Shown here piece by piece: positions 1 to 24,823 of a stretch of DNA of 64,000 bases. The stretch comes from Ilumatobacter sp. (lineage in GTDB: Bacteria > Actinomycetota > Acidimicrobiia > Acidimicrobiales > Ilumatobacteraceae). Where the stretch lies: assembly GCA_035512975.1 (NCBI GenBank), contig DATKCX010000306.1:11372-75371 (forward strand), read 5' to 3'. Position 1 is the first letter of the stretch; every line of letters begins with the position of its first letter. The notes beneath the pieces were generated by a model, which saw nothing but the letters and a program-made list of their open reading frames with translations, did not search any database and was not told the DNA's origin. Both the position numbers and the translations under genes were made by a program.

Positions 1-1007
1 CCTACGACGGGTCGCTCGTGGGCCCATTCACCTGGGCCAACGGGAAGGTTGACGCTGTGCGCACGTACGCAGCCGAGCACGGTATCGATTTGGCAGCGAG
101 CTTTGCCTATTCCGACAGCGTCTACGACACGCCGTTGTTGTCGGCGGTGGGTCATCCGGTCGTTGTCAATCCCGATCCTCGGATGCGGGTCATGGCCTCT
201 GCACGACGTTGGCCGATTCTCAGTCTTGCCGGCGCAGCGAACTCCGGCGGTGCGGTCGAGTCGCTGGGCATGGGAATCCAAAAGCTCGTGCTCACCTTCA
301 GCCGGCCATCGCTGGTTCCCTACGCCGACATCGACATTCACGGAGCAGAGCTGATCCCCAAGACCGGGCCGGTCATTCTGGTCGGCAACCATCGTTCGTA
401 CTTCGATCCGGTCGTGATGGGCATGGTGGTCGCACAGACCGGTCGCACCATGCACGGGCTGGGCAAGAAGGAAGTGTTCGACCTCCCGTTGCTCGGCACG
501 TTCGCTTCGGCGCTCGGCGGCATTCGGGTCGATCGTGCATCTGGCAGCGAGGAACCGCTGCAGGCTGCGGCAGACGTCCTGCAGAACGGCGGGCTCATCG
601 TGATCATGCCGCAAGGCACTATCCCTCGGGGCCCGGCCTTTTTTGACCCTGAGTTGCGGGGTCGGTGGGGTACCGCGCGCCTCGCCCAGATGACCGGCGC
701 ACCCGTGGTCCCTGTCGGGCTGTGGGGTACCGAGAAGGTGTGGCCGCGATCGTCGCGTCTGCCGAAGATGTTCAATATCGCCGACGCCCCGTCGGTCACC
801 GCCACTGTGGGAGAGCCGCTGCGGTTGAAAGGTAAGGATCTCGACGCCGACACCAAGAAGGTCATGAAGGCGATCGCCGCGCTCCTGCCAGCGGCATCAC
901 GGAAGAAGTACCAGCCGACGGCCGAGGAGTTGGCCCGCACGTACCCGCCCGGCTACGCCGGCGATCCGAACGCTGAGAGCGACCGCCGACCCGGCACCGA
1001 CGCGTAA
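1..1007 (+). CDS. HAD-IB phosphatase / 1-acyl-glycerol-3-phosphate acyltransferase (PlsC-like) fusion, 5'-truncated by window edge
   Basis: Frame is open from the window start. HAD-IB C-terminal motif YSDSVYDTPLL..VVVNPD is followed by acyltransferase motifs NHRSYFD (HX4D) and IMPQGT. Confidence 0.85.
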   Translation, partial: YDGSLVGPFTWANGKVDAVRTYAAEHGIDLAASFAYSDSVYDTPLLSAVGHPVVVNPDPRMRVMASARRWPILSLAGAANSGGAVESLGMGIQKLVLTFSRPSLVPYADIDIHGAELIPKTGPVILVGNHRSYFDPVVMGMVVAQTGRTMHGLGKKEVFDLPLLGTFASALGGIRVDRASGSEEPLQAAADVLQNGGLIVIMPQGTIPRGPAFFDPELRGRWGTARLAQMTGAPVVPVGLWGTEKVWPRSSRLPKMFNIADAPSVTATVGEPLRLKGKDLDADTKKVMKAIAALLPAASRKKYQPTAEELARTYPPGYAGDPNAESDRRPGTDA

Positions 1008-17890: not shown

Positions 17891-18889
17891 CTAGTTCCCG
17901 AGGTCCGGCCAGCGGCGTTGCTGTCGACGGCGCAAGCCGGCAGCGCCGAGTTTGCGGTGCTCGCCGAGCTCCCATTGCCTGCGCCATCCGTTGTACTCGG
18001 GGCCAGTCAATGCAGGGTTTGCGCCCCTGGCGGCCCGCTGCGTGGCAGTCCAATAATCGGTGAGGGCTTCATCGCCCAGTCGGGTGACGGCCGCTTCGAT
18101 CCGGGCATTGAATCGACGTGTGTTCTCTCCCTCCTCGGCCATGAGCGGTGCGCCGAAGACGACGTTGGTGCGGCCTGGCTTTGGGCGTTTCATGCCCTTG
18201 CCGAAAATGGCACCGGTGCCGTCGATGAACACGGGGATGACCGCCGCGCCGGTGCGAGCGGACAGGTACGCCGCACCACCTTTGAACTCTTGCCCCCAGC
18301 CATCGGGTGAGCGACCCCCCTCTGGGTAGATCAACAGGCTGTGCCCGTCGGCGAGCAGGTCACGGAACATGTCGGACGACTTCCGCCCGGTGATCTCACG
18401 GTCGATCGGAATGGCGTTCAGCGCCAGCGCCGACATGGCCGCCTTCCACCGCTGATCGAAGAAGTAGTCGGCCGCGGCTGCAACGACGAGGTCATGGCGC
18501 CAACAGGCCGGGATCGCTCGAATCATCAACCCGGTGTCGACATGGCTGTGGTGATTCGGTGCGAAGATCACCGCCGGAGGCGTGTCGAGGCGGGTGAGGT
18601 GGTCGAGGCGATCGAGCCCGGCGACGTCGGGGTTGGCAATGCCACGCACCATGGCCCTGAGTGGGCCCTCGGTGATGGCGATGCGGGCAGCCCTGGCCAG
18701 CGGTTGGCGCGCCCAGGCAGTGTCGTAGTTGGCCCCGAGCATCGACACTTCCGTGGGAACGCTGACGCCTTTGGGCACCGTGGGTGAGCGATACGGAAAG
18801 CCGTAGTTCCGGAGTGGTTTGGCGATGGCGCGCACCGCAGACTCAGCCTTCCCCGCAGCTCGACTGCCAGCCCGCAGATACCGGTTCAT
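17891..18889 (-). CDS. Lysophospholipid/glycerolipid acyltransferase
   Basis: IFAPNHHSHVD (HX4D), AAAADYFF and IYPEGGRS; start refined to ATG 18889. Confidence 0.88.
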   Translation of the reverse strand: MNRYLRAGSRAAGKAESAVRAIAKPLRNYGFPYRSPTVPKGVSVPTEVSMLGANYDTAWARQPLARAARIAITEGPLRAMVRGIANPDVAGLDRLDHLTRLDTPPAVIFAPNHHSHVDTGLMIRAIPACWRHDLVVAAAADYFFDQRWKAAMSALALNAIPIDREITGRKSSDMFRDLLADGHSLLIYPEGGRSPDGWGQEFKGGAAYLSARTGAAVIPVFIDGTGAIFGKGMKRPKPGRTNVVFGAPLMAEEGENTRRFNARIEAAVTRLGDEALTDYWTATQRAARGANPALTGPEYNGWRRQWELGEHRKLGAAGLRRRQQRRWPDLGN

Positions 18890-18941: not shown

Positions 18942-20531
18942 TCATTCGACGTCGGCGACCAGGACGCCGGGGACGTGGAGGTGGGTGATGCTCGGGGAGC
19001 GGCCGACAACATCGGACGCGATCTCGAACGCGTCGTCCATCGTGGAAGCAGGCGTGAAACCCAAACGACGCACGGTGGGTGGGTCGCCGCCGACGATGAT
19101 GACCTTGCCGGCGTGCTGTTGCCCGTGAGCGCCCCAGTACCACGCGTAGAAGGGGTGCACACCGTGGTAGGCGTTGCCGGTGCGGTACAGATGGCGGTAC
19201 CACTCGTCCTCCGCGTACTTCTTCTCCCACTTCTGGCTCATCACCGCAGGGTCGGTGGTGTCGGCCAACACTTCGTCGTAGAAGTCGATGTAGCTCGGAT
19301 GGTGAACCGGGTTGAACTCTTTGTAGGTGGGGTGGGTCATGATCACGACGCCTCCCTCCTTCACGAGCGGTTTGCCGCGGTACATGTTGAACAGGTAGCC
19401 GAGCCCCATGCACATCACGAGGATCGGGTTCATCACGCCCTCGGGGTTGTACGGGCAGATGAACGGAATGCCCATGGTGAGGATGTCGGTCTGGCCGGCG
19501 ACGGGCACGAGGTGCTGTTTGTACACGTGCTCGAGGGTGATCTCGTGTACCGAGGGCGTGAACCCGGCCTGCACGCTGGTGACTTCGTACGGCGATTCGA
19601 TCGAGTGGAAGATCTTGCGCTTGGCGCTGTTCGGCAGCCGGTTGAGCGACTTCGTCGTCGCCAAGTACGTCGCTCGGTCGCGTGCGTTCCATTCCCACTC
19701 GCGCTTGGCCAGGAAGCCGAACGACGACGGAAACGCCTGCGTGTTGATGGTCGTCTCGACTTGGAAGATCTTCGGGCCGTGGTCGCGCAGCACCTTGCCC
19801 ATGCGCCAGATCGACTTGTGCAACGCCGAGTGATCACGGTCGCCCATGAGGCTTCGCGTGTTCTGCAGGGACTCAGGGTTGTGGTGATGGCTGAGGCAGC
19901 GGTAGCTCGCGAGCCCAGTGGTGATCGATTTCCAGCCGCCGTCCATCGCCACCTGATTGAGGTTGGCGTAGACGATGAGATCGCTGTCGGCAGCGCGCTT
20001 GTTGATCTCGAGGATCTCACCGTGGTCGGTGGTGCCGATGACGGCGAGGTTGTCGGGGTCTTCGGCGTCGTGCTGATAGAGCAGCCCGCGCGGATGGAAC
20101 GCGTCAAAAATTCGGTCGCCCAGCACGTGACGCAACTCGTAGTCGTGCATGCGTCGATGCAGCCCGAGCGCGGCGATGATGTGGATGTCGTCCACTCCCG
20201 CTGCGGCAGCGAGGTCGAGCACCGCTTCGATGATTCGCTGCCGGTTGTCGGGTCGGCGCATCTTGGGCAGCGACAAGCTCGCATCGTCGAACACGATGGT
20301 GAGCTTCATGTTCGGCACGAGGAGCGCCGGCAACGGCTCCATGTCGTGGGGGTTGAGGAGTGCGTTGCGAATCGCCCCATCGACGTCGGGGATACCCGGC
20401 AACGGTTCTGGCGGGTAGATCACCCGGCTGCGGTCGGCTGGCAGCTTCTCGAGACTGAAACCCTCACCACGCCAGAAGAGAATCGGCGGGGTGGAACGGT
20501 CGACGTCGAGGACAAATCCAGGGCGAGGCAT
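18942..20531 (-). CDS. Lactate racemase (LarA/DUF2088) domain protein, divergent
   Basis: LarA-like blocks IVFDD, ALGLHRRM, QHDAED, INKRAADSDLIV, DGGWKS and GGVVIMTHP recognised by eye. Confidence 0.75.
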   Translation of the reverse strand: MPRPGFVLDVDRSTPPILFWRGEGFSLEKLPADRSRVIYPPEPLPGIPDVDGAIRNALLNPHDMEPLPALLVPNMKLTIVFDDASLSLPKMRRPDNRQRIIEAVLDLAAAAGVDDIHIIAALGLHRRMHDYELRHVLGDRIFDAFHPRGLLYQHDAEDPDNLAVIGTTDHGEILEINKRAADSDLIVYANLNQVAMDGGWKSITTGLASYRCLSHHHNPESLQNTRSLMGDRDHSALHKSIWRMGKVLRDHGPKIFQVETTINTQAFPSSFGFLAKREWEWNARDRATYLATTKSLNRLPNSAKRKIFHSIESPYEVTSVQAGFTPSVHEITLEHVYKQHLVPVAGQTDILTMGIPFICPYNPEGVMNPILVMCMGLGYLFNMYRGKPLVKEGGVVIMTHPTYKEFNPVHHPSYIDFYDEVLADTTDPAVMSQKWEKKYAEDEWYRHLYRTGNAYHGVHPFYAWYWGAHGQQHAGKVIIVGGDPPTVRRLGFTPASTMDDAFEIASDVVGRSPSITHLHVPGVLVADVE

Positions 20532-21751
20532 CAGTTGTGCTCTTTCGTTTCGCGCATATCAAAGGCGATCTTGACGGCACCCCGGCGACCAGCGGACGAG
20601 GCGTGGGCAATGGCATCGACGTGTTCGCCGAGCCGGTAGGTGGCCGAGAGCAATCGCTCGGCCTCGTAGAAGTTGGCAGTGTCGGCGGCCAAGTCGAAGG
20701 TGCGAGCCGTAGTGCCGTCTGCCATCGTCTCGGTGCCGTAGGTGTAGGCACCTTTGAGTTCGGTTTCGCGGTGCCAGAGGCCAGTGAGATCGAGCTTCAC
20801 GTCTGCGGGCATACCCACCAGCACGACCCGCCCGCGCGGTCGGGTGATCCGGATGGCGTCGGCGATCGAGTCGCTGGAACCGACCGCGTCGATCGTGGCA
20901 TGCGCGCCCGACGACAGGTACTGGCCGCCGGCCGGTGAGTCCCCGATGATGTGGCAACCGACCTCGCGACGTACCGCAAGGTCGAGTTTGCTCGACGGAA
21001 CGACGATGTCGGCACCGACTGCTTTGGCCAGCGCCAACTGATGGGGGTAGCGACCGCCCACCACGATGCGAACTCCTGGCACGTACCGCTTCAGGCCGGC
21101 GATGACCGCGAGGCCGACGGTGCCGGCACCGATCACGGCGACGACAGGATCTTGCGTGTCGCGGAGTACCGCGCCAGCGGTGAGGGCTGCGTGAATGCCG
21201 CCGGCGAGCGGTTCGATCAGGACAGCCCGCTCGTCGGGGACGTCGTCGGGAATGGCGTGGAGCTGAGACTCGTGGGCCCAGAACCATGGCCCCCAACCTC
21301 CTCCGGTGGAACAACAGAACCCGGTCTGCAGCCCAGCTTCCACGCCCGTGCGCGACGTGGTGGCGAGATGCGCGTAGTCGTCGCCATCTGCGGGGCAGGC
21401 ACCATCGAACGGCAGCGCGACGCCGCGGGCGGCATGCCCGAGCACCGGTTCCAACACCACGCGAGATCCGTCATCGAGGTGGCCGACGACCTCGTGGCCG
21501 GGCACGAACGGGAACGACACGAAGTCGTCGAAATAGGTCGACGCATGGCCTTCCACGAGCGACAGGTCGGACCCGCAGATGCCCGCAAGGCGGGTGGTGA
21601 CGCGATGCCAACCGTCGCCGGGGGAGGACGGGTCGTCGACCGATCGATACTCCAGCGGCCCGATTCGAGCTGCGGTGGCCGGCGCAACAGCCGACGCGAT
21701 GCGAGCCATCCCGAACCGAGCCGGAGCCCGCTTCACCTGCAACGCCTTCAT
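20531..21751 (-). CDS. Zinc-binding (MDR) alcohol/polyol dehydrogenase
   Basis: AGICGSD, PGHEVVG, IEPLA and IGAGTVG; TGATG overlap with the LarA-like gene; start refined to ATG 21751. Confidence 0.88.
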   Translation of the reverse strand: MKALQVKRAPARFGMARIASAVAPATAARIGPLEYRSVDDPSSPGDGWHRVTTRLAGICGSDLSLVEGHASTYFDDFVSFPFVPGHEVVGHLDDGSRVVLEPVLGHAARGVALPFDGACPADGDDYAHLATTSRTGVEAGLQTGFCCSTGGGWGPWFWAHESQLHAIPDDVPDERAVLIEPLAGGIHAALTAGAVLRDTQDPVVAVIGAGTVGLAVIAGLKRYVPGVRIVVGGRYPHQLALAKAVGADIVVPSSKLDLAVRREVGCHIIGDSPAGGQYLSSGAHATIDAVGSSDSIADAIRITRPRGRVVLVGMPADVKLDLTGLWHRETELKGAYTYGTETMADGTTARTFDLAADTANFYEAERLLSATYRLGEHVDAIAHASSAGRRGAVKIAFDMRETKEHN

Positions 21752-21800: not shown

Positions 21801-24155
21801 TCATCGGAAGGTCCTCCGGCGTTCGCGTTCTACCATCATTTCGCCGATGGGCAACAACGGCACGGAGGCACCTTTCGACTTCGACCAGTTCTCCACCAAC
21901 CAGCCACGCTTGCGGGCGATGGCGGCCAACCGGGTCTCGGGGTTCACTGCAACGGGGAAACCGACCGCCTCGAACAGCGGCAGGTCCGACGACGAGTCGG
22001 CGTAGGCGACGCACTCGTCGAGCCGAAACCCTTCGGCCGAGCAGTAGTCGGCCAAGATCTGGGCGCGGGCCTCGCCGGTGGGCGGCACGGTCATCATTTC
22101 TCCGGAGTAGGTGCCGTCGGCCTTCACACTCATCTCGGCCGACACGATCTCGTCGAACAAGGGCTTGAGACCGGCGACGTTGAACGACAACGCGCCGGTG
22201 ATCAACACCGTGCGGTGGCCGGCAGCACGATGCTCACGCACTCGCCGCAAGCCCTCTGGGAAGCTCTTCGCCATGATGAGGTGGGTCATCATCTCCCGCG
22301 CATCTTCCTCGATCTGCTCGATCGGCGCGTTCTCGTAGCGGCGGTAGAAGTGGCGCAGGAAGTCGGTGCGGTCGCGGCTGTCGAGTTTCAACAGGCGCGG
22401 CGCCTCCGACATCGTGCGCATGACATAGCGCATGCGCTCGGGCCCGTTCAGGCGGCGGGTGGCGAGGAACGAGTAGCTCTCGACGACGTTCGAGGCGATG
22501 AGCGTGTTCTCGAGGTCGAACGCGGCGACGTGACGCTTCGGGTCGAGCACCTGCTTGCGGAGACGGGTGGCGCGGTCTGGGGTTTGCGACTTGCCCGGAT
22601 TGGACTTCACGCGAGCGTGCTGCACGATCGACGGCAGGTGGATGCCGGTGACGTAGTGCTCCCAGTCGACCGACGCCGGGTTGAAGTTGAACGCGGCTTG
22701 GTCGGCCTCGTCGAGCGAGTTCCACAGCGCCATCAGGTTGTCGACCTGGTAGATCGCTTCGCATTCGGTGTACAGGCCGTAGAGCTCGACGTACTGGAGT
22801 GCGGTGTCGATCTCGGTTCGCTTCGCTTCCAACGTGGCCGCGAACTCAGCTCGCTCACCACGCAGTGGCAGAGCCTGCAACGTCTTTTCGGCGACGTTCA
22901 ACACCTTCTTGGCACGGTCGAGCTGCTGCTGTACTCGGCCACGACCGAGGAAATTCCATTCGGGCACGAGAATCGGCTGACCCTCGTTGTCGTAGAGCGG
23001 GTGCTCGGTGAACCAACCAGAGATGTAGTTGATCATCGCCCGGTACTTGAGCGGGTTGATGCCACCCGACGCGACGTGCGTGATCGCCGGCGCATCTTCA
23101 GGGCCAGCGGCTGCCACAGCAATGATCGCGGCCACGACGATGTCGACCGGAATCACGTCGACGGTGCCTTCCGGCACGCCTGGGAACTCTTTCAGCAGAC
23201 CTCGGGCGTAGCTGATGATGACCGGTTCGGCCATGCGGAACCCACGAATCCAGCCCGGCTTCGGTTCGGCCCAGGCCGACTCGATGATCGAGGGGCGCAC
23301 GATCGACACGGGCACGTTGCCTTTGGAGTCGGTGAGCGCCTGCTCGCCGAGCGCTTTGGTGAACGCGTAGGCGTCTGGCCAACCGACGCTGGCGGCGCGA
23401 GAGCGCCCAGCTTCGACCAACTGATCCTTGACCCAGCGCTCACGGAGCTGCTCGGTCTTGGCGGCGAGCGCCGGGGCACCGGCAGCGCCGAGCTCGTTGC
23501 GGGCCTCTTTGCGGTATCGCACCAACCGCTCCGGTTGGCGGCTGAGCGACTCGGTGTCGCCCCATAACCGACGTGAAGCGGCAACCTCGGACTTCCACGA
23601 CAGGCCGATGTCGAACGGCCCAGCGCTGACCAGTTCTTCTGGGGCGTTGCCGCGCCGGTTGCCGGCGACATAACACGTACTCACCGCAACGAGGTGCGGG
23701 GTGATGCCGAGCTTCTGGCAGAGCTCGACGATGCGAACCGGCCCGAGCAGGTTGATCTCCACCGCTCGGTCGAGTGGCGAGTCGAACGACACCGTCGCCG
23801 CCGAGTGGATGATGGTGTGAGCGGTGGCCCACAGCGCCGTGTCGGCTTCGTTCAAACCGAGACCGTCACGCGACACGTCGCCTGCGACGGTGGTGATGCG
23901 GCGCGCCACCATCTCGTCGAAGGTTTCCGGCGAACCTGGCGCATTGAACTGCTCGCGCAGTCGATCGAACGCATCGTTCTTGAGGAGCTCTTTGCGGGTA
24001 CGTTCCGACGCCGTGGTGCGGCGCCCGTCGCGTACGAGCAGGATGAGCTCACAGTCGGGTACGCCGCGCAACAGCCGTTCTACGAGTGCGGTGCCGACGA
24101 AGCCGGTTCCCCCCGTGACGGCGATGCGCTTGCCAGCGAGCGATGCTGCGATCAC
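21801..24155 (-). CDS. Fatty acyl-CoA reductase (NAD_binding_4 + male-sterility C-term) fused to HAD-IB phosphatase
   Basis: VTGGTGFVG, IHSAATVSFD, YAFTK (YxxxK), IVRPSIIES, DVIPVD and FNPASVDW; then AFDLENTL and YADSSSDLPL..AVNP. Start refined to GTG 24155. Confidence 0.88.
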   Translation of the reverse strand: MIAASLAGKRIAVTGGTGFVGTALVERLLRGVPDCELILLVRDGRRTTASERTRKELLKNDAFDRLREQFNAPGSPETFDEMVARRITTVAGDVSRDGLGLNEADTALWATAHTIIHSAATVSFDSPLDRAVEINLLGPVRIVELCQKLGITPHLVAVSTCYVAGNRRGNAPEELVSAGPFDIGLSWKSEVAASRRLWGDTESLSRQPERLVRYRKEARNELGAAGAPALAAKTEQLRERWVKDQLVEAGRSRAASVGWPDAYAFTKALGEQALTDSKGNVPVSIVRPSIIESAWAEPKPGWIRGFRMAEPVIISYARGLLKEFPGVPEGTVDVIPVDIVVAAIIAVAAAGPEDAPAITHVASGGINPLKYRAMINYISGWFTEHPLYDNEGQPILVPEWNFLGRGRVQQQLDRAKKVLNVAEKTLQALPLRGERAEFAATLEAKRTEIDTALQYVELYGLYTECEAIYQVDNLMALWNSLDEADQAAFNFNPASVDWEHYVTGIHLPSIVQHARVKSNPGKSQTPDRATRLRKQVLDPKRHVAAFDLENTLIASNVVESYSFLATRRLNGPERMRYVMRTMSEAPRLLKLDSRDRTDFLRHFYRRYENAPIEQIEEDAREMMTHLIMAKSFPEGLRRVREHRAAGHRTVLITGALSFNVAGLKPLFDEIVSAEMSVKADGTYSGEMMTVPPTGEARAQILADYCSAEGFRLDECVAYADSSSDLPLFEAVGFPVAVNPETRLAAIARKRGWLVENWSKSKGASVPLLPIGEMMVERERRRTFR

Positions 24156-24202: not shown

Positions 24203-24823
24203 ATGTCATCTCCGACAGTTCGCGAAACGAGCACGCGCCAGCGGATCCTCGACGCCGCGCTCGACTTGTTCGGATCGCGCGGGGTCGACGCCGTCTCACT
24301 CGACGAAATCGCCCGCGAAGTGGGCGTTCGAAAGCAGACCGTGCTGTATTGGTTCGCGTCGAAAGATGAACTGCTCGACGCGGTGCTCGAAGAGGTGGCC
24401 GCAGAACTGATCGTGGTGATCGACGCTGCCGTGCGGTCAGCGGAACCAGATCCGCTCCAGCGCATCGACGCGGTGGTGCGCGCCGTGTTTCGGCCTGCGG
24501 TCCGTCGCCCGGCGATGTTGGGGTTGGTACGTGAACTCACGCGGTTGCCCGAAGCTCACGCGGATCGGCTCCGGGTGCGCGTGCAGCCCCTGGTCGACCG
24601 ATGCGTCGAGTACCTCGAGCAAGAGATGGACAAGGGGCACCTTCGTCGGGCCGATGCGCGCCTGGTGGTCGGTCTGGCCTACGCCACCGTGACAGGAATC
24701 GCCACCGATCGCGAGGTCTTGCGAGCGGTCGGTTGGCAACCGACCACCTCGGGTCTGCGCCACCTGCGGGACGAGTTGCGAGCATTCCTGCGGGCCGCCC
24801 TCGCACCGCCCGCGCCCATCTGA
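24203..24823 (+). CDS. TetR/AcrR family transcriptional regulator
   Basis: TRQRILDAALDLF..SLDEIAREVGVRKQTVLYWFASK HTH. Confidence 0.92.
   Translation: MSSPTVRETSTRQRILDAALDLFGSRGVDAVSLDEIAREVGVRKQTVLYWFASKDELLDAVLEEVAAELIVVIDAAVRSAEPDPLQRIDAVVRAVFRPAVRRPAMLGLVRELTRLPEAHADRLRVRVQPLVDRCVEYLEQEMDKGHLRRADARLVVGLAYATVTGIATDREVLRAVGWQPTTSGLRHLRDELRAFLRAALAPPAPI

Follow-up and report, generated by a model that had tools for sequence, protein, structure and literature searches.

A LarA homolog of group 14 in an elb-like operon of Ilumatobacter: a candidate nickel-pincer nucleotide enzyme of glycerolipid synthesis

The protein considered here, P0001, is encoded on the minus strand at 18942..20531 of a 64,000-nucleotide stretch of the Ilumatobacter sp. 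contig DATKCX010000306.1 (hereafter the window, by which the whole stretch is meant), in an open reading frame (ORF) that has exactly these bounds, begins with ATG and specifies 529 amino acids. P0001 is a LarA homolog (LarAH) of the published group 14, whose family and oddities are already in print, and its gene is the third of an operon that, by its predicted domains, is a rearranged and split version of the elb ether-lipid cluster. What is new here is the identification of the LarAH group 14/15 subgroup with ElbC of these clusters. The explanation that best accounts for the observations, to which we assign a probability of about 0.55, is that P0001 would be an enzyme that depends on nickel-pincer nucleotide (NPN) as its cofactor and uses a single catalytic histidine to shuttle hydride on a glycerol-phosphate lipid precursor within an elb-like operon.

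That P0001 belongs to the LarA superfamily (DUF2088) and, within it, to the NCBIfam family NF052592 ('LarAH_14_15_16') is virtually certain. The protein contains a Lar_N domain (Pfam PF09861, E=5e-35) and matches NF052592 over its full length (profile positions 1-520) with an E-value of 1.7e-257 and 854.9 bits, against a cut-off of 740; with the lactate racemase model NF033504, for which the cut-off is 460, it scores 71 bits. A model of P0001 computed with AlphaFold2 from a 46-sequence alignment has a mean predicted local distance difference test (pLDDT) score of 95.1, and in a Foldseek search of the PDB with this model the top match was the single-histidine LarA 9q3k_A, with template modelling (TM) scores of 0.79/0.86. 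The 17 matches listed within ranks 1-19 are all LarA-family structures, counting the T. maritima structure 4nar, which we take to be one. The canonical LarA 5huq_A of Lactiplantibacillus plantarum, with which the first-pass annotation of the window had proposed to compare a predicted structure, matches the model with TM scores of 0.66/0.79, and P0001 thus combines the Lar_N domain with the two-domain fold by which the superfamily is recognized. P0001 is an ordinary member of this very large, highly conserved family, for which a search that scored 8,000 candidates yielded more than 4,730 relatives at E<=0.001. Desguin et al. (2020) divided 354 LarA homologs into 25 groups (PMC7583248), and in their Table S1 the gene context of group 14 consists of COG0204 PlsC (88%), COG0560 HAD (88%), COG1063 (88%) and COG3320 thioester reductase (50%). 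The operon of P0001 has exactly this context. The function of group 14 is listed as unknown in the published accounts.

In LarA, the hydride at C2 of the substrate is passed to C4 of the NPN pyridinium as the hydroxyl proton goes to one histidine, and inversion is completed by another histidine on the opposite face. The carboxylate of the substrate is bound by Arg75, and Desguin et al. count Lys298 as a catalytic residue (PMC7583248). The residues of P0001 were mapped through a HMMER alignment to holo LarA_Sp (E=7.8e-32, ~22% identity) combined with the published LarA_Sp numbering. D83 (codon at 20283-20285, like those that follow on the minus strand) corresponds to Asp73 of LarA_Sp and Asp72 of LarA, H125 (20157-20159) to the catalytic His115 and His108, K201 (19929-19931) to the NPN-tethering Lys195 and Lys184, and H217 (19881-19883) to the nickel ligand His211 and His200, so that the equivalents of the NPN-binding residues Lys184, His200 and Asp72 are all present. 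Other positions have changed: L86 stands where LarA has Arg75 and LarA_Sp has Lys76; the loop of His174 (Asn185 in LarA_Sp) is four residues shorter and holds neither histidine nor asparagine; and N368, mapped by eye via the Frankia row of Dataset S2, is found at the Lys298 position. The two-histidine arrangement that marks canonical 2-hydroxyacid racemases and epimerases (LarA, Mar, GntE) is therefore reduced to H125, and the Arg75 and Lys298 pair of the same enzymes is lacking. H459 and Y361 align with His401 and Tyr307 of LarA_Sp, two residues around its unidentified ligand. The first-pass annotation had reached much of this by motif matching. All the motifs that it quoted are present (DDASLS at 82-87, ALGLHRR at 121-127, NQVAM at 192-196, DGGWKS at 197-202 and LSHHHNP at 213-219), its recognition of the His108-like, cofactor-tethering lysine and nickel-ligand histidine motifs agrees with the alignment, and the arginine of the DxTRP motif and the histidine before AGxSGG are replaced as it had stated.

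With one catalytic histidine and no counterpart of Arg75 or Lys298, a 2-hydroxyacid substrate and full racemisation are unlikely for P0001. The lack of a His174 equivalent in groups 14 and 15 has been restated by Gatreddi et al. (2025; PMC12611868), and Desguin et al. suggested that groups without H174 and K298 may catalyse another hydride-mediated reaction, perhaps with no inversion of a stereocentre (PMC7583248). The pattern is a property of the subgroup as a whole. An alignment of 46 diverse relatives splits into two classes, and the 19 sequences of the cofactor-competent class, including P0001, keep GLHR(R/K), GG(W/H)KS and HH(N); invariant in all 19 are D82, D83, H125, R126, K201, S202, H217, H329, Y361, N368, H411, Y414, Y449 and H459, and the key residues are also kept in 18/18 further loci. 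Throughout groups 14 and 15 the Arg75 position is occupied by Leu, Ile or Val and the Lys298 position by Asn. The loss of the carboxylate-holding residues and of the second histidine, combined with invariance of the cofactor residues within the subgroup, makes the different chemistry or substrate that had been proposed for P0001 at the outset appear well founded at the level of sequence.

The other class of the alignment (P0130, P0133 and about 25 other representatives) has lost the equivalents of His108, Lys184 and, mostly, His200 and resembles the group 16 row of Frankia; two members that were scored fall below the NF052592 cut-off, with 544 and 572 bits, and the class may consist of pseudo-enzymes or carry out other chemistry. 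A second LarA-like gene of ~465-500 amino acids, whose weak match to NF052592 comes in two pieces (E ~1e-40 to 1e-70), occurs in many genomes of three families in the sample of the phylum and often shares a genome with the group 14 gene. Two fusions were also seen, which may be gene-calling artefacts: P0207 (947 amino acids), in which a LarAH-family region is joined to a chlorophyll a/b-binding domain, a hint that it comes from a eukaryotic alga or that two genes were called as one, and P0210 (a 420-residue fragment), in which a C-terminal LarAH piece is joined to an acyltransferase domain.

The gene of P0001 lies in a four-gene operon on the minus strand, in the order P0004, P0002, P0001, P0003. 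P0004 (21801..24209; the ORF extends to 24299 and the likely start is M31 at 24209) is a fatty acyl reductase (FAR), with NAD_binding_4 and Sterile domains, fused to an HAD-IB phosphatase. P0002 (20531..21751) is, by Pfam and NCBIfam, a Zn-dependent medium-chain dehydrogenase of the polyol-dehydrogenase type; its ORF extends to 21796, and the likely start, M16 at 21751, is backed by tblastn matches in relatives, which in most loci begin at residues 5-19. The stop of P0002 and the start of P0001 share one base, 20531. P0003 (17891..18889) is an acyltransferase resembling PlsC and the acylglycerolphosphate acyltransferases (AGPAT), in which the HX4D motif is present; its ORF extends to 19162, and the likely start, M92 at 18889, is backed by relatives that align from residue ~93 on. 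This arrangement is widely maintained. Among 80 loci of Acidimicrobiia, FAR-HAD lies upstream of the LarAH gene on the same strand in 61 of the 62 with at least 3.7 kb of flanking sequence, 46 of these 62 having the Zn-dehydrogenase in between, and a PlsC-like gene follows downstream in 70 of the 73 with at least 1 kb. Across the phylum, FAR-HAD, the Zn-dehydrogenase and the PlsC-like gene all stand beside the LarAH gene in 12 of the 13 loci that score above the NF052592 cut-off; the remaining one, L104, showed no PlsC-like gene, and in it an insert separates the LarAH gene from the dehydrogenase. The operon context was not found around three homologs below the cut-off (L113-L115), and no further pathway component emerged when other neighbours in L057 and L104 were annotated with Pfam. 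As had been surmised when P0001 was first annotated, a lipid or glycerophosphate substrate is what the gene context points to, in the form of a glycerolipid or glycerophosphate.

The same modules make up the elb operon of Myxococcus xanthus, in which elbA and elbE encode NAD-dependent epimerases/dehydratases, elbB an HAD-like phosphohydrolase and elbD a protein composed of FAR, acyl-CoA synthetase (ACS), acyl carrier protein (ACP) and AGPAT domains, and elbC is described as a protein of unknown function (PMC9131029). A 2026 paper sets elbABCDE as MXAN_1531 (elbA) to MXAN_1527 (elbE), with no function assigned to ElbC in the text available (PMC13012113), and a separate source confirms that elbD is MXAN_1528. 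By the order of locus tags elbC is then MXAN_1529, which Dataset S2 of Desguin et al. places, with eleven other myxobacterial proteins, in LarAH group 15, with the residue pattern D / L,V / H / - / K / H / N (PMC7583248). The scan of genome contigs for relatives of P0001 gave Acidimicrobiia only, and other phyla were reached through metagenome contigs; the elb-type comparison set comprised 80 loci on such contigs, with LarAHs 43-49% identical to P0001. In these, the LarAH gene is preceded upstream by a stand-alone HAD gene in 63/66 loci, in 50 of them at no more than 400 bp; on the downstream side a FAR domain follows in 35/47 and, beyond it, a PlsC domain in 22/27. None of the 80 showed the Zn-dehydrogenase. 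In two loci annotated with Pfam, L164 and L132, the downstream gene encodes one protein of ~1,500 residues with NAD_binding_4/Sterile, AMP-binding, PP-binding and acyltransferase domains, and is followed by a gene for an NAD-dependent epimerase or short-chain dehydrogenase/reductase (SDR). This is the elbABCDE architecture of M. xanthus, as compared through the published descriptions of that operon. The LarAHs of the two loci pass NF052592, with 790.7 and 838.2 bits, as does, with 759.6 bits, P0131, a representative whose 90% cluster takes in a protein from a Myxococcales metagenome-assembled genome.

Taken together, the group 15 membership of MXAN_1529, its position as elbC and the passing of NF052592 by elb-like LarAHs indicate that ElbC is a LarA homolog of the NCBIfam family of P0001. 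Module by module, the correspondence also holds in the genome of Ilumatobacter: the only match to the FAR domain of the ElbD-like protein of L164 is P0004; the best match to its acyltransferase domain is P0003 (66.6 bits, the next scoring 41.9); and the best match to the ElbB-like HAD protein of L164 is, narrowly, the C-terminus of P0004 (84.6 vs 74.2 bits for the next). P0001 thus shares with the genes at the elbC position both its family and its clustering with HAD, FAR and acyltransferase modules, the architecture being split and devoid of ACS and ACP. In the literature searched, no main text was found that joins ElbC with a racemase, an earlier mention remaining possible, and MXAN_1529 appears in none of the main texts searched; among these, ElbC in the relevant sense occurs only in the 2022 review (PMC9131029). 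A search for nickel-pincer and ether lipid returned one unrelated paper only, no match linked DUF2088 to acyltransferase and lipid, or lactate racemase to gene clusters of fatty acyl-CoA reductase and acyltransferase, and a preprint on elb in sponge symbionts makes no mention of Acidimicrobiia or LarA.

Of the systems described so far, the nearest to P0001 is LarAH14 of Frankia sp. (Franean1_4168), which belongs to another class of Actinomycetota than the host of P0001 and has the same NCBIfam family and group 14 gene context; the group 14 rows of Frankia read D, I, H, -, -, L, K, H ... N at D72, R75, H108, H174, F175, F176, K184, H200 ... K298 (PMC7583248), the pattern found in P0001. ElbC of M. 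xanthus, a member of group 15, has kept and lost the same residues as P0001, the name of NF052592 covering groups 14, 15 and 16, and its neighbours supply the same HAD, FAR and acyltransferase modules. The difference lies in their packaging: in myxobacteria one ElbD protein unites FAR and acyltransferase with ACS and ACP, HAD is a protein of its own and an SDR serves as the extra reductase, whereas the operon of P0001 joins FAR to HAD, encodes the acyltransferase on its own, has no ACS or ACP and provides a Zn-dehydrogenase as the extra reductase. Among proteins of solved structure, the best matches in both sequence and fold are LarA_Sp (9Q3K/9Q2U) and LarA_Bw (9Q3J) of group 17, which like P0001 keep one catalytic histidine, the NPN lysine and the nickel histidine. 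They differ in that Asn stands in place of His174 and Lys in place of Arg75, where P0001 has a shortened loop and Leu, and in a glycolytic gene context that points to phosphorylated small molecules, that of P0001 being lipid-related. With LarA of L. plantarum (5HUQ), P0001 has in common the two-domain fold and Asp72, His108, Lys184 and His200; the equivalents of His174, Arg75 and Lys298 are gone, and P0001 is ~100 residues longer.

If P0001 uses NPN, the cofactor would be supplied in trans. Whole-genome profile searches of the source assembly (462 contigs, 94.7% complete) placed none of larB, larC and larE on C306, the contig of the window, in keeping with their reported absence from the 64 kb; larB (245.3 bits) adjoins larC (379.8 bits) on contig C374 and larE (295.9 bits) lies on contig C84, all three above their cut-offs. 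P0001 is the sole Lar_N gene found in its genome and hence the only known client for the cofactor there. The genes also co-vary. Presence/absence of a P0001-type gene agrees with that of larC in 60 of 61 genomes of the class, the same 11 holding NF052592 above cut-off, the FAR domain of P0004 (E<=1e-20) and larC, with larC alone in one genome and none of the three genes in 49. In the larger sample of the phylum (301 genomes), 73 have the gene above cut-off, and larC is present in 67 of these vs 148 of the 228 without the gene; these counts take in ten genomes flagged as unpublished, G088, G148 and G226 being among the 73, and in both samples the counts include kin that are not independent and do not amount to a statistical test. 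In one genome (G300, contig C16, locus L112) the LarAH gene has larC on its own strand at a distance of ~10.5 kb, the sole cofactor gene seen near the operon among the loci fetched. From its residues and this co-occurrence, P0001 is likely to be NPN-dependent, and the position of larBCE on other contigs of the genome fits the trans-supplied cofactor that the first-pass annotation had considered.

A scheme can be proposed in which these parts work together. K201 would tether NPN, and H217 would be the ligand of its nickel. The partners would supply a fatty aldehyde or alcohol (FAR), acyl transfer to an acceptor of the glycerol-phosphate type (the PlsC-like protein), a phosphatase (HAD) and a ketone/alcohol dehydrogenase. 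In M. xanthus a fatty aldehyde that depends on elbD has been seen, but no fatty alcohol. With H125 as its single histidine, P0001 would not racemise a 2-hydroxyacid and might instead borrow hydride from the carbon bearing the C2 hydroxyl of a glycerol-3-phosphate-type substrate, a phosphorylated three-carbon backbone being favoured over a hydroxyacid by the occurrence of the solved group 17 relatives beside triose-phosphate genes. The transient C2 ketone could then permit ether formation at C1 (sn-1). In one variant, condensation with the fatty aldehyde from FAR would take place and the hydride would be returned to the alkyl C1', giving 1-O-alkyl-dihydroxyacetone phosphate (1-O-alkyl-DHAP), to be reduced by the Zn-dehydrogenase, or by ElbE in myxobacteria; in another, an acyl group would be swapped for a fatty alcohol in the manner of alkyl-DHAP synthase (AGPS) and the hydride returned to C2. 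The acyltransferase would afterwards acylate sn-2 and the HAD domain remove the phosphate. AGPS is an unrelated FAD enzyme and at most a functional analogue, a comparison that is our own: if P0001 forms the ether, both would make an sn-1 alkyl ether by chemistry that needs a C2 ketone. The components of this scheme differ in standing. The operon, on its gene content, probably makes alkyl ether glycerolipids; that P0001 itself performs the ether-forming step is rather doubtful; and the broader proposal, that ElbC and LarAH14 are the missing AGPS-independent ether-bond-forming enzyme of bacteria, with hydride borrowed via NPN from C2 of glycerol-3-phosphate, is offered as a tentative one. Racemisation of glycerophosphate was ranked low as an activity of P0001, since only one catalytic histidine is left.

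Several observations weigh against a hydride-shuttle enzyme of this kind. Every chemical step in the scheme is inferred by us, and no biochemical activity is on record for any member of groups 14 and 15; purified LarAH14 of Frankia, when provided with NPN, showed no activity in any of the seven assays, which covered hydroxyacids only (PMC7583248). The genetics in the available text of PMC9131029 cover elbD and elbE, with no elbC mutant described. Pontiella has an ElbD homolog and no ether lipids were detected in it (PMC11868695), and in one combined literature search no report of ether lipids in Acidimicrobiia turned up. The actinobacterial operon is without the ACS and ACP domains and has a Zn-dehydrogenase in place of the myxobacterial SDR, and even this dehydrogenase is missing from 16 of the 62 loci of Acidimicrobiia. 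Finally, larC was not found in 6 of the 73 gene-bearing genomes of the phylum sample (G014, G074, G116, G183, G222 and G287, all of one family), nor larB and larE above cut-off in the five of these six that were tested (92-98% complete); two of the six, G014 and G183 (loci L105 and L106), retain the full operon and every key residue of the LarAH. Some members may thus employ a different cofactor, as had also been suggested for P0001 itself. Because of the six genomes without larBCE and of the record on ElbC-type proteins given above, our confidence in the hydride-shuttle enzyme is moderate.

Of the competing explanations, the one that survives best, though it is improbable, keeps NPN and the lipid context and changes the product, which would be an ester derived from fatty alcohol or aldehyde, an unusual lysophospholipid or a stereo-inverted glycerophosphate backbone. 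It gains from the lack, in the one search made, of ether lipids on record for Acidimicrobiia and from the actinobacterial cluster with its other dehydrogenase and without ACS/ACP, and the genetic tie of elb to ether lipids concerns elbD only, possibly also elbE, in the available text of PMC9131029. Yet FAR, HAD, LarAH and acyltransferase are the same four modules that occur as a set in the elb clusters of different phyla, and full stereo-inversion normally needs two bases, of which a single histidine is kept. It is less probable still that P0001 is an NPN-dependent racemase or epimerase of another 2-hydroxyacid (a 2-hydroxy fatty acid or one of the glycerate type) feeding lipid synthesis. The characterised LarA homologs all act on 2-hydroxyacids, NF052592 is named and described as a hydroxyacid isomerase, and the NPN-binding residues and one catalytic histidine are kept, but the second histidine is absent, the Arg75 and Lys298 positions are altered throughout groups 14 and 15, the seven reactions in which the Frankia protein was inactive are those of hydroxyacids, and the authors of the grouping, Desguin et al., raised the possibility that no stereocentre is inverted in such groups (PMC7583248). 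Least probable is an NPN-independent protein, be it a scaffold, a lipid- or substrate-binding subunit or an enzyme with another cofactor, in which the kept lysine and histidines would have some other role: the intact genes in the six genomes without larC, two of them with the full operon, and the persistence of group 16-type paralogs without the His108 and Lys184 equivalents speak for it, but H125, K201 and H217 stay unchanged from phylum to phylum, the lysine of the closest solved relative that corresponds to K201 binds NPN covalently, and the agreement with larC in the class was found in genomes where the gene is the only LarA-family gene detected.

The NPN-dependent, hydride-shuttling reading of P0001 bears on two standing questions, the role of LarA homologs without the second catalytic histidine (groups 14, 15 and 17) and the formation of the alkyl ether bond, without AGPS, in the main ElbD-dependent pathway of myxobacteria. 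As a LarA homolog in which the NPN-binding residues are intact, ElbC leads to the prediction that ether-lipid synthesis requires nickel and larBCE. As elbD already serves as a metagenomic marker for producers of ether lipids (PMC11868695), the role of elbC affects how such surveys are read. Were ElbC and LarAH14 indeed to form the ether bond, they would be the first NPN enzymes to serve lipid biosynthesis and to act on something other than a hydroxyacid, and nickel and larBCE would be needed for aerobic synthesis of ether lipids and plasmalogens in myxobacteria, many Actinomycetota and other phyla. A search for the CarF plasmalogen desaturase (PF10520) gave no match in the genome of Ilumatobacter, and its control matched no genome either.

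The surroundings of the operon offer a few further observations. The window has a G+C content of ~65%. A TetR-family regulator is encoded divergently (24203..24823, plus strand; the ORF begins at 24143 and the likely start is the ATG at 24203). This ATG and the minus-strand ATG of FAR-HAD (24209-24207) overlap in the heptamer ATGTCAT at 24203-24209, leaving zero intergenic space, so that either one of the two starts lies elsewhere or both mRNAs are leaderless. Genes for glutamate synthase, a LysM protein, galactokinase and melibiase flank the operon and are judged to be unrelated to it. A second lipid-phosphate module lies ~17 kb from the operon, where an ORF cut by the start of the window (3-1007, plus strand) encodes the end of an HAD domain together with a PlsC-type acyltransferase domain, as an HAD-acyltransferase fusion, and is followed on the same strand by a gene for a PAP2-family phosphatase (1126-1977).

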